NCBI GenBank assembly: GCA_964016885.1
Contig: OZ024764.1
Coordinates: 13,888,001 to 13,952,000 of the forward strand
Direction of reading: 5' to 3'
Source: Eledone cirrhosa
Taxonomy: Eukaryota
Length of the DNA: 64,000 nt
Position 1 is the stretch's first letter. Each line of letters starts with the position of its first letter. Positions 1,060-64,000 of this stretch are shown in pieces. Both the position numbers and the translations under genes were made by a program. The notes under the pieces are model-generated. The model ran no database searches. It was given only the letters and a program-made list of their open reading frames with translations, and was not told the origin of the DNA.

Positions 1060-2152
1060 CAGACTAAAATCCAAAGAGGGCTCGATAAGGATAAATATAT
1101 ATCAAAAATATAAGAACCCTAGAGCAGATATTTATTAAAATAACAGATTAAAGTTTAAGCAAAGAATCGCTGTTTTCACCCTTAACGGGATCTTCTTAAA
1201 TATTTGATATATATTTATCCTTATCGAGTCCCCTTTGGATTTTAGTCTTCAAATTTATTATTATTACTATATATATATATATATATATATATCCTTATCG
1301 AGCCCTCTTTGGATTTTAGTCTTCAAATTTATTATTATTACTATATATATATATATATATATCGAGTCCCCTTTGGATTTTAGTCTTCAAATTTATTATT
1401 ATTACTATATATATATATATATATCGAGTCCCCTTTGGATTTTAGTCTTCAAATTTATTATTATTACTATATATATATATATATCCTTATCGAGCCCTCT
1501 TTGGATTTTAGTCTTCAAATTTATTATTATTACTATATATATATATATATCCTTATCGAGCCCTCTTTGGATTTTAGTCTTCAAATTTATTATTATTACT
1601 ATATATATATATATATATATCGAGTCCCCTTTGGATTTTAGTCTTCAAATTTATTATTATTACTATATATATATATATATATCGAGTCCCCTTTGGATTT
1701 TAGTCTTCAAATTTATTATTATTACTATATATATATATATATCCTTATCGAGCCCTCTTTGGATTTTAGTCTTCAAATTTATTATTATTACTATATATAT
1801 ATATATATATCGAGTCCCCTTTGGATTTTAGTCTTCAAATTTATTATTATTACTATATATATATATATATATCCTTATCGAGCCCTCTTTGGATTTTAGT
1901 CTTCAAATTTATTATTATTACTATATATATATATATATATATATCGAGTCCCCTTTGGATTTTAGTCTTCAAATTTATTATTATTATTATATATATATAT
2001 ATATATATATATATATATATATCGAGTCCTCTTTGGATTTTAGTCTTCAAATTTATTATTATTACTATATATATATATATATATATATATATATATATCC
2101 TTATCGAGCCCTCTTTGGATTTTAGTCTTCAAATTTATTATTATTATTATTA
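1060..2152. mobile_element. PLE pLTR-like family A: fold-back copy followed by a tandem array of its 3' end
   Basis: 1060-1105 is inverted relative to 1205-1250. About 14 repeats of ATCGAG(T/C)CC(C/T)CTTTGGATTTTAGTCTTCAAATTTATTATTATTAC follow, separated by variable (TA)n. Other copies lie near 5950, 31531, 38020, 56620, 58386 and 63440. Confidence 0.65.
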
Positions 2153-2260
2153 TATATATATATATATATATATATATATATATAGTATTAGTTATACTAT
2201 TTATGGTTATGTAAATGCAAAACCTTATGCAGTCATATAACTGTCCATGCATTAATAAAT

Positions 2261-2307
2261 TGCTCCGAAGAGTCCAAACCTCGGTTTGGAGGAAACAGCT
2301 GTAAGCA
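2261..2307 (+). ncRNA. Minimal type I hammerhead ribozyme motif (U4C core variant)
   Basis: TGCT-CCGAAGA-g TCCAAACC tc GGTTTGGA g-GAAA-CAGCTG-TA-AGCA. Stem I is TGCT/AGCA, stem II is 8 bp, stem III is palindromic, and the site is GUA. Confidence 0.7.
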
Positions 2308-2829
2308 CAATAATTATTTGAACAGTTCTTTGATTCTTATATTTCATATATATATATATATATATATATATACATATATATATATATATATATATATATA
2401 TATATATATATATTTAAGCAAAGAGTTATTTAATTTGTTGGTTATTCAACAAATTTATTTATAACAGATTCGAAGCACTCTACAGTTTTCTTCTGGAGCA
2501 TAATATCAATAACATTAATTGTTTCTACTTTAGGCACAAGGCCAGCAATTACCCAGTGCATTACTGGTACTTATATAATATTAATAAATGGAAACTATCT
2601 TTATAAAATCATATTTATTTTATTATATATATAATAAAATAAATGTTTCCATTTAAAAATATTATTGCTATATATATGTGTGTGTGTGTGTGTGTGTGTG
2701 TGTGTGTGTGTGTGTGTGTGTGTGTCTCTGTGTGTGTGTGTGTGTGTGTCTGTGTGTGTGTGTGTGTGATTTAGTTATTACGTCACGGAAGGAAGGTCGG
2801 AAGCTAGAACACTTTGAAAGCCACTCTCA

Positions 2830-4093
2830 CCACCAAAACCACCGTGAACACCACCACCACCATCATCATCATCATCATCATCATCACCACCACAATCACC
2901 AGACCCACCACCAATGTCACCACCATCACCACCACCACCATCACCACCATCACCAACATCACCACCACCACCACCACCACCACCACCAGCACCATACCGA
3001 TCTGTAAGTAGTGGAAAAAATTGTTCACTTCCTGTACCGAAAATTATGCAACAACAACAACAACAACAACAACAACAACAGCAGCTGCTGCTATTACCAC
3101 CACTACTACTACTACTACTACTACTACTACTACTACTACAATGAAGGTCACAATAGTTTTACAACAACCATAACAACAACAACAACAACAACAACCACAA
3201 CAACAACAACAACAACAACCACAACAACAGCAACAGCTGCTATTACCACCACCACTACTACTACTACTACTACTACTACAATGAAGGTCACAACAATAGT
3301 TTTACAACAACCATAACAACAACAACAACAACAACAACCACAACAACAACGACGACAACAACAATAACGACGACAACAACAACCATAACAACAACCACCA
3401 CAACTACAACCTCAACAACCACCACCAACAACCACGACAACTACAACCACAACAACCAACACCACCACCAACAACAACAACAGCACCAACAACAACACCA
3501 ACAACCACAACACCACAACAACCACAACACCACAACAACCACCACCACCAACAACAACACCAACAACCACAACACCACCAACAACAACACCAACAACCAC
3601 AACAACCACCAACAACAACACCACCACAACAACCACCACCACCACCAACAACAACCACGACAACTACAACCACAACAACCAACACCACCAACAACAACAC
3701 CACCACCACAACACCACCAACAACAACACCACCAACAACACCACCACCACCACAACACCACCAACACCACCAACAACAACACCACCACCACAACACCACC
3801 AACAATAACACCACCAACAACACCACCACCACCACAACACCACCAACAACAACACCACCAACAACAACACCACCACCACAACACCACCAACAATAACACC
3901 ACCAACAACACCACCACCACCACAACACCACCAACAACAACACCACCAACAACAACACCACCACCACAACACCACCAACAACACCACCACCACCACAACA
4001 CCACCAACAACAACACCACCACCACAACACCACCAACAACAACACCACCAACAACAACAACACCAACAACCACAACACCACAACAACAACAAC
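2830..4093. repeat. (CAC)n/(CAA)n/(TAC)n trinucleotide low-complexity tract
   Basis: Direct read. Confidence 0.95.
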
Positions 4094-61996: not shown

Positions 61997-62544
61997 ATAT
62001 ATATATATATATATATATATATATATATATACCTATATATATATATATATATATATATACCTATATATATATCTATATATATATATATACCTATATATAT
62101 ATATATATATATATATATATATATATATATATATATATATATATATATATATATATGTATCCAGGGAGTGCAGCATTACTGTAGGTTCAATCTGGTGACG
62201 ATTCGATGTGAGCACTGTCATTACAACAGCAGAGGTCCGATGAGCTTTTGATTCCCTCGTCGGGCCAGATCAATACAGATCGAACCTTGAGCTGATCAAT
62301 AGCGAAACGCGCGTCACCAATCAATAAACGTAATGCATGCTTAACAAATCATCCTTGTATCATATATATATATAACGAAGGAAATGTGGTAAGGAACCAG
62401 GTGGACCATAACGCACCAAAGTACTCAATACTTGGGGTAGTAGAGTGGGTAATAGGAACCAGTGGGGTCTTACTGGTTCCTATATATATATATATATAAT
62501 ACAAAAGATAAAGTTGTCAGAAAGAAATCCTTCAATCATCTAAT

Positions 62545-62942
62545 AATTATTTCTACTTTTTGGCCCAAGGCCAGCAATACCCAGTGTATTACTGGTACTT
62601 TATTTTTAATGATTTCATTTATTGGCCATAAGGGCCGACATATGTTCCCACACAAAGTTTTTCTTCTAACAGAGAACTAGGCAAATGTAACCATAACATA
62701 TTATAAAATTGTTTCTACCTTTGGCACAAGGCCAGCAATTACTCCAGTGCATTACTGGTACTTTATTTTATCGACCCCGTAAGGATGAAAGGCAAAGTTA
62801 AGCTCGGCGGAATTTGAACTCAGACCGTAAATAACCATAACATATTATAAAATTGTTTCTACCTTTGGCACAAGGCCAGCAATTACTCCAGTGCATTACT
62901 GGTACTTTATTTGATCGACCCCGTAAGGATGAAAGGCAAAGT
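62545..62942 (-). mobile_element. Cluster of truncated SINE-1 3' parts, two of them in a tandem duplication
   Basis: TAACCATAACATATTATAAAATTGTTTCTACCTTTGGCACAAGG is repeated at about 62688 and 62832. Confidence 0.8.
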
Positions 62943-63610
62943 GGAATAGTATAATTTACGCGTGTGTGTGCGTGTGTGTGTGTATATATATATATATATA
63001 TATATATATATATATATATATAGATATATATATAGATATATAACGAAGGAAATGTGGTAAGGAACCAAGTGGACCATAACGCACCAAAGTACTCAATACT
63101 TAGGGTAGTAGAGTGGGTAATAGGAACAAATAAGACCCCGACGGCTGAGCTCAAGCCGTTTCGACGGCTAATTCTGGAATTAGTCCAGAATTAGCCGTCG
63201 AAACGGCTTGAGCTCAGCCGTCGGGGTCTTATTTGTTCCTATATATATATATATATAGCTTTTTCCGAGAATAAGTAAGTGACATAGTCACTACTTTAAA
63301 ACTGATAGTGAATGGTCTTCAAAATGTTTTTGATTAAACATAGAGTATATTACCAAATATACTATACATATCTTCATGTATACATCGCTATTTCAAAGCA
63401 CCAATACTAATACCTAATATAAATATATATATATATATTATAAGAACATATTAAAGTTTCAGCTAAGCAACGCTGCTTTCACCCATAACGGGATCTTTTG
63501 AAACTAAAAGAAAATCACTCTGCGGACCCAGAAGTAGATATTTATTTTCAAAAAAAAAACGTTACAACCGAAAGAAAACAGGAAGACGATACTATATCTA
63601 TATATCTACA

Positions 63611-63781
63611 TCTAAGGCGGGTAAAATTCCCGAGATCCATGGACGAGTTCTCTCCAGCGGTCTCTGTCCCTCATTATCGCTGCCATGTCCTGCGTCTCCA
63701 ACAGACCAGTGTCTGTCCTTAGGGCATCAACATATGTTAACCTTGGTCTTCCTCTTCTAGTGTGTCCATGTAGGGGCTCCC
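63611..63781 (-). mobile_element. RTE/RTEX LINE 3' end
   Basis: Translates WEPLHGHTRRGRPRLTYVDAL...FYPP*. Confidence 0.85.
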
Positions 63782-64000
63782 ATATATATATATCGAAGGA
63801 AATGTGGTAAGGAAGCAGGTGGGCCATAACGCACCAAAGTACTCAATACTTAGGGTAGTAGAGTGGGTAATAGGAACGAGTAGGACCCCGACGACTGAGC
63901 TCAAGCCGTTTCGACGGCTAATAGCCGTCGAAACGGCTTGAGCTCAGCCGTCGGGGTCCTACTCGTTCCTATATATATATATATATATATATATATATAT

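Follow-up and report, generated by a model that had tools for sequence, protein, structure and literature searches.

A doubled bulged hairpin beside the two end sites of Hydra-clade Penelope-like elements in the Eledone cirrhosa genome

Why should repeat families with dissimilar sequences carry the same short motif close to the point where they join runs of (TA)n? This question is raised by a stretch of 64,000 nucleotides (nt) from Eledone cirrhosa (assembly GCA_964016885.1, contig OZ024764.1, positions 13,888,001 to 13,952,000; hereafter the window). The initial annotation had pointed out a YYGAGTRCY-like motif at nine sites about 40–85 nt before the terminal (TA)n of hammerhead ribozyme families and had suggested a role in reverse transcriptase (RT) recognition, 3′-end processing or (TA)n targeting. 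All nine strings were present at the positions and on the strands given, the family B string lying at 20786 rather than 20787. Seven of them fit YYGAGTRCY, those of families L and A do not, and the distance from the motif end to the next (TA)4 was 35–72 nt. The motif makes up the 3′ arm of a small hairpin with a bulge, RCUC-Y..loop..R-UH-GAGY, found at the ends of Penelope-like elements (PLEs) of the Hydra clade. Judged from sequence, the hairpin probably acts on RNA as a putative binding site that places the element's RT at two start points, which likely bound the known PLE tail.

We sampled 116 stretches of 10 kb from the same genome together with the window, obtaining 1661 flanks of (TA)n runs that fell into 1022 clusters. 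In the 910 clusters having no window member, YYGAGTRCY occurred 28 times, compared with a mean of 5.4 and a maximum of 12 in 30 shuffles, and 20 of these matches sat 40–99 nt from the junction, bearing out the proposed positional enrichment near (TA)n junctions. Each GAGY has a complementary RCUC upstream, with two unpaired letters directly before the GAG. The complete hairpin consists of RCUC, a Y-R pair with a variable stem-loop, a 2-nt UH bulge and GAGY, often followed by ACUNU. The upper stem differs in letters between families yet stays paired (UACU/AGUA in B, CAA/UUG and CAG/CUG in E, CGUA/UACG in K), and in family A, whose intact form is GAGC and not GAGT, the outer pair is swapped to give GCUC/GAGC.

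A hairpin with a 2-nt bulge on its 3′ side was found in 36 of the 1022 junction clusters, window clusters included, as against 7.5 in shuffles (maximum 9, 8 shuffles). Other bulge sizes on that side stayed near background (16, 12, 7 and 5 clusters for 0, 1, 3 and 4 nt, versus 10.4, 6.6, 6.6 and 6.8 in shuffles), and the bulge read UU, UC or UA in 30 of the 36 clusters. When 81 instances from the metagenome sequences described below were anchored on the CUC and GAG sequence alone, the first upper pair formed in 73 at a 2-nt bulge versus 3 at 0 or 1 nt; it was C-G in 48 instances and U-A in 24. The letters after GAGC were conserved and unpaired (A in 65, C in 71 and U in 69 of the 81). On a tree of 58 proteins, composed of host-element and metagenome proteins only, the first pair of hairpin 1 changes between C-G and U-A at least 8 times. 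The suggestion of a conserved cis-element with RT recognition as a leading role was thus sound, except that the element is half of a hairpin rather than a linear motif. A coding constraint was rejected because the motif precedes the start codon and the spacing between the arms varies freely, keeping no reading frame. A splice-site or hammerhead-cleavage reading of RUH was likewise rejected, the sequence there having neither a GU donor nor a CUGANGA core.

The families had been called otherwise unrelated, which proved incorrect: A, B, E, F, I, L and N join Hydra-clade open reading frames (ORFs). Because the proteins compared are 40–76% identical (nine host-element proteins, family A not among them), the motif families are relatives with diverged non-coding ends. 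Motif-bearing ends of A, E and I join Hydra-marked ORFs in the genome sample, and among the loci read individually an ORF was joined at 3 of 7 for B, 10 of 10 for L, 6 of 6 for I, 4 of 6 for N and 4 of 5 for F; five B loci whose matches lie in simple repeats (L197–L201) and one duplicate F locus were left out of this reading. No contiguous ORF was found within 1.5 kb in 7 loci of family K, and none for the copy at 18722, which has only one partial relative. H1 is a young autonomous Hydra family with many intact ORFs at 97–99% identity, the intact protein having 772 amino acids (for example in L190). The N-terminal motif is RWK in H1 and H2, RWR in B, L, F, N and P032, and RWI or RWT in I, while DKG is changed to DKT in H1, H2, B, L, F, I and N and to DKA in P032. 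The full ORFs of H1 and H2, in which the endonuclease (EN) and linker features were read, encode a C-terminal GIY-YIG-type EN without CCHH, a CxCx5C linker and one Cys between the two core motifs.

The Hydra clade comprises PLEs with a C-terminal EN (EN+), generally under 3 kb long and with tails of 30–40 nt, according to the portions covered of Craig et al. (2021; PMC8557442). The elements found here share with it RWK plus DKT, the CxCx5C linker and the C-terminal EN without CCHH, and also the hammerhead in the pseudo-long terminal repeat (pLTR), insertion into (TA)n, the inverted 5′-truncated arm and the one-sided tail. They differ in their longer tails (about 75–140 nt) and in element length, since tandem spacing is 3.1 kb in H1, about 3.5 kb in B and 6–7 kb in L. 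These family L tandem units (G000:C1 and others) are twice the usual Hydra length, and their second hairpin, described below, has a loop of about 100 nt.

In full-length, intact H1 and H2 elements the region from the hammerhead to the start codon holds two such hairpins, and H1 copies stop either 7 nt before the first hairpin or 7 nt before the second. For the other families this predicted a second hairpin immediately past the terminal junction, and one was found in six of the eight (A, B, L, K, I and N). Among copies that run on past the long end, it was present at 7 of 7 loci for B, 10 of 10 for L, 5 of 7 for K, 4 of 6 for I and 4 of 5 for N; that of A (1 of 1) and that of one further family were found by unbiased search. 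We mapped 210 junctions to family references, 154 of which have a known hairpin downstream. The junction lay 7–10 nt before the CUC of the hairpin in 114 of the 154, and 4–6 nt before it in 101 once microhomology was extended; a 3-nt microhomology between template and target was seen at 96. The most frequent short-end distance was 7 nt in A, 9 in B, 8 in L, c25 and c47, 10 in E and K, 10–15 in I and 12 in F. The terminal junction lies the same distance before hairpin 2, which inserted copies do not contain. Since each of the two end sites has its own hairpin about 7–10 nt on its 3′ side, it is the inner, short junction to which the motif is tied and not, as had been proposed, the terminal (TA)n; the variable 40–85 nt of the initial annotation therefore reflects how far apart hairpin 1 and hairpin 2 stand, which differs between families.

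The hairpin is also found beyond this genome. Scanning metagenome contigs with a Hydra alignment yielded 78 loci at 32–41% identity, from which we kept 49 that were non-redundant and had at least 90 nt before the ORF. Forty of these 49 Hydra-type 5′ untranslated regions (UTRs) contain the hairpin and 24 contain two or more, compared with 3 on the reverse strand, 0–2 in the ORF interior and 2.4 in shuffles. Hairpin 2 lies about 25–70 nt before the start codon, and UAU/AUA triplets peak 7–9 nt before the CUC in the metagenome instances. In the portions covered of the PMC8557442 supplement, the published Hydra-1_Ajap consensus has both hairpins before the start codon when inspected by eye, and a single hairpin stands after the hammerhead, at the 3′ end, in each of the records taken from their file order to be Hydra-2_Amil and Hydra-2_Ajap. 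In the same source, visual inspection of the Hydra-1_Crog start shows GCCC ... GGGC and then ACUUU, which may be a compensatory change within the CUC/GAG core that is fixed elsewhere.

Families of other PLE types provide a comparison. The first coding lead in the window, an endonuclease piece at 53249–53485, was rejected as a host since it is part of a PLE of a different type, with a CX4CxxC linker and CCHH; its ends lack the hairpin, and its protein has no significant match to H1. The hairpin was found in none of the members of four L139-type clusters (0 of 16, 0 of 10, 0 of 7 and 0 of 5) and in one member of the Neptune-linked clusters (1 of 13, 0 of 9 and 0 of 7). Also rejected as hosts, since the hairpin does not come after them, were the Neptune-like ORFs of L036, L038 (plus strand), L122 and L033; the B end that comes after the L038 ORF belongs to a B arm attached there in inverted orientation. 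These data bear on the reading of a linear motif that targets (TA)n, or that is shared among unrelated families by chance or through coding constraint, a reading that would accommodate the enrichment near junctions and the conservation of unpaired letters after GAG. (TA)n targeting is unlikely because non-Hydra families that insert into TA lack the motif. Since, in addition, the families are related through their Hydra ORFs, the motif is upstream of the start codon with no reading frame held between its arms, and the covariation and second hairpin largely refute it, we regard this reading as highly improbable.

Other signals were seen near junctions of this kind. In the family of window 53249–53485, ATATCG comes after the short end and, in one run-on copy, after the long end (L145:161–205, L049, L069), so a different doubled signal may exist in other PLE clades. 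CCGAGCA or ACGAGU stands near the junction, with no canonical hairpin, at window 9120–9160 (minus strand) and in clusters 23, 69 and 72, cluster 69 carrying GCUC-A..U-CC-GAGC. A 600-nt repeat in (TA)n or (TACA)n runs at window 20866–21473, 23925–25215 and 51246–51886 has no hairpin.

Several observations weigh against hairpins that set the two ends. The run-on pattern searches for B, L, K, I and N (459, 318, 189, 282 and 6 matches; 0 with reversed patterns) required CUC within a set range past the end. They thus presupposed a 5′ arm at roughly that distance and imposed nothing on the 3′ arm, the bulge, the upper stem or the ORF. In family F, which is joined to a Hydra ORF, no GAG arm comes after the long end (0 of 5 loci); successive searches for its second hairpin gave 0 matches, then 25, mostly (TA)n runs, and then 169 showing run-on without a GAG arm, and its short ends lie 7–18 nt from hairpin 1. 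The only run-on copy of family E is old, with a broken hairpin arm. Forty of the 154 junctions fall outside 7–10 nt, and families B and A together supply 89 of the 210 mapped junctions. When instances were folded alone, all four core pairs exceeded a probability of 0.5 in only 29 of 109, and the H1 and H2 hairpins by themselves fold poorly; pair types (G-U versus A-C, 8 to 5) do not indicate the folding strand. Nine of the 49 metagenome UTRs, several of them shortened, lack the hairpin, and the start of the Hydra-1_Obim consensus, in the passage covered of the PMC8557442 supplement, shows GCUC twice with no GAG arm.

We then considered how the two ends are combined. Both ends could be mapped in 64 mirrored insertions, a few of which may be duplicated segments; after omission of 5 in which one end lay at neither site, 58 of 59 had one short and one long end. 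Such mixed ends fit the priming of both target strands on one RNA, once per hairpin, and fit poorly with two free RNA species; simple 3′-end processing into two free RNAs, as the initial annotation would allow, is disfavored for this reason. A related alternative, corresponding to the 3′-end processing of the initial annotation, is that the hairpins direct cutting of the RNA 4–7 nt upstream, whether the agent is the protein of the element, a nuclease of the host or the RNA, and that the RT starts at the new 3′ ends. This would produce the same fixed spacing, a self-cleaving fold is already nearby in the element, and RNA-seq reads of Poseidon_Ac have ends at its two start sites, as described in the parts covered of Frangieh et al. 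(2024; PMC11167929). Free RNAs of two kinds would, however, be expected to pair randomly, and with mixed ends in 58 of 59 insertions both RNA cuts would therefore need to remain in one complex. In addition, Poseidon_Ac starts internally on uncut RNA in vitro (PMC11167929, in the same parts), and the hairpin has neither a hammerhead core nor an Rfam match. We consider RNA cutting unlikely on these grounds.

A second alternative is that the motif is read as DNA, in the donor or in complementary DNA (cDNA), for example by the endonuclease, or that it serves transcription or translation of the ORF, the ends lying nearby for another reason such as UA-rich sequence. The Drosophila virilis Penelope tail was required for plasmid DNA to be recognized by the endonuclease (cited in the covered parts of PMC11167929), the 3′ arm with the letters next to it is near-palindromic in several families, the pair types do not fix the strand, and both hairpins are within the 5′ UTR, hairpin 2 close to the start codon. 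Nevertheless, hairpin 2 is present neither in the target nor in the inserted long arm, yet the long end holds its distance from it, and an RNA template is therefore indicated. Covariation across a loop of 3–60 nt and more also needs a single strand, and a translation or promoter role leaves one end per hairpin unexplained. Taken together, a DNA-level or expression role seems to us a slim prospect, somewhat slimmer still than RNA cutting.

Going beyond what was observed (the hairpin, its doubling and covariation, the fixed spacing, the mostly 3-nt template–target match and the short and long ends), binding of the RT to RNA could proceed as follows. The element's protein, probably a dimer by analogy with Poseidon_Ac (PMC11167929, in the parts covered), would bind both hairpins of a single RNA and cut both strands of the (TA)n tract. 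Each cut 3′ end would anneal to the UA-rich stretch lying immediately 5′ of a hairpin, and copying would run toward the 5′ end of the RNA. The arm primed at hairpin 2 would contain hairpin 1 and constitute the tail, where the motif was seen, whereas the arm primed at hairpin 1 would lack it; tail length would then equal the spacing of the two hairpins. We put the full form of this scheme, a twin-hairpin ruler in which a dimeric, telomerase-related RT binds both hairpins on one RNA and primes both cut (TA)n strands at once, 7–10 nt before each, at about even chances.

Within the window, hairpin 1 of family B (ACUC/GAGU, 4-bp upper stem, UU bulge) lies at 20771–20799 on the plus strand. Further plus-strand copies are at 57550–57578, at 60136–60164 within the mirrored insertion 60025–60207, and at 48531–48559 within the mirrored insertion 48481–48602, the last with its fourth lower pair broken; minus-strand copies are at 46809–46837 and 62418–62446. 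Two more mirrored B insertions have a long and a short end. That at 63043–63239 has its long end at 63043 (minus arm, hairpin 63086–63114) and its short end at 63239 (plus arm), 9 nt before the would-be start of hairpin 1, and that at 63794–63969 carries its hairpin at 63836–63864 on the minus strand. An H1 mirrored insertion (52279–52649) has its long end at 52279, its short end at 52649 and hairpin 1 at 52344–52378 on the minus strand.

Family K hairpin 1 is at 46570–46634 (plus, 40-nt loop) in the mirrored insertion 46010–46704 and at 32693–32757 (minus) in the mirrored insertion 32616–32878. Family L hairpin 1, with a 63-nt loop, is at 51051–51136 (plus), its long end at 51180, and family N hairpin 1 (UC bulge) is at 60322–60376 (minus). 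Family A hairpin 1 occurs on the plus strand at 38060–38110 (lower stem GCUC/GAGC; mirrored insertion 38020–38143) and 56732–56782 (mirrored insertion 56613–56818), and an intact A-type hairpin is at 1075–1125 on the minus strand. The cited A site at 1223 belongs to a copy that has the 3′ arm and lacks the 5′ arm. It falls in a plus-strand array of A tail ends at 1207–2169, about 14 ends of 43–49 nt, each with only the 3′ arm and each followed by (TA)n; this array looks like repeated priming or repeated insertion. The ninth cited site, 18722–18731 (minus), is a single copy with the 3′ arm only and no intact 5′ arm. A further motif-bearing end, not among the nine, was seen at 18295–18635 (plus), with a UA bulge (GAGUGCUC) and four relatives in other loci.

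The families had also been described as hammerhead families, and with our own descriptor the fold was found upstream of the motif in 8 of 11 family references, H1, K and L being the exceptions; Rfam 15 gave 0 matches in the window at gathering score. The fold is at 29878–29916 (plus) and, mirrored, at 29831–29869 (minus) beside family F hairpin 1 at 29947–29970 (plus); at 15607–15652 (minus) beside family E hairpin 1 at 15523–15547 (minus, CAG/CUG upper stem); and at 21821–21874 (minus) beside family I hairpin 1 at 21728–21755 (minus, CU bulge in this copy). Other copies of hairpin 1 are at 8732–8755 (minus) for F and 15362–15386 (minus, CAA/UUG upper stem) for E. Variants of the hammerhead core were seen, namely a U3-A8 pair in B and P032 and A at position 4 in family A (L191:1339–1422; L032:7082–7120; L062). 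In family F run-on copies (L319–L324), a GCAC/GUGC stem stands at the expected place of hairpin 2, and yet short and long ends are still paired.

The elements and their insertion anatomy are already known; full-text searches, which covered papers outside subscription, found none describing the hairpin. The main text of PMC8557442 contains neither "hairpin" nor "stem-loop", and the paper ascribes the tail to endonuclease resolution. The nearest counterpart is Poseidon_Ac (PMC11167929, in the parts covered), whose RT starts internally at two sites bounding the tail and whose protein, predicted to be a dimer, cuts and extends both target strands in vitro. Two starts bounding the tail and a need for RNA near the ORF start would be common to both. 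Poseidon_Ac belongs, however, to another clade and starts in an AC-rich stem-loop inside the ORF, reported to lack homology to the cut DNA and with no repeated motif named, whereas in the Hydra elements here the putative starts lie in the 5′ UTR, with a 3-nt UA-type match and a hairpin for each.

Retrozymes of the non-LTR kind are non-autonomous PLE derivatives that similarly have hammerhead-bearing pLTR pieces and short tandem non-coding units (bioRxiv 10.64898/2026.07.22.740005; PMC4209133). The portions covered of these two texts name no RT cis-signal, and the word "hairpin" is absent from the text of PMC4209133. Unlike retrozymes, most families here are ends of autonomous elements. Retrozyme-like short non-coding units in head-to-tail order were also seen (L193/L194, L202, L324), about 257 nt long for B and about 221 nt for F; they retain the tail region and the first codons of the ORF with only part of the hammerhead, and the B units retain both hairpins. 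In hepadnavirus epsilon, the telomerase template boundary element and the R2 3′ UTR, a small RT-bound RNA structure sets where copying starts or stops. The hairpin may act in a comparable way and belongs to none of these groups; here it is doubled, lies 3′ of the start and would serve priming on cut target DNA.

PLEs are the closest relatives of telomerase RT, and it is an open question how they pick the point on the template where copying begins and how their tails and mirrored ends arise. In the parts covered, PMC8557442 calls for an in vitro system and PMC11167929 maps two starts and names no signal. A doubled hairpin at a fixed distance from each end offers a precise test, for which this genome has young, intact elements, and the motif serves as a marker of Hydra elements, as well as of their non-coding passengers, in other animals. 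If true, the twin-hairpin ruler would account for the tail and mirrored ends of Penelope-like insertions and would represent a portable signal of about 25 nt that lets any RNA, including retrozymes, be copied.

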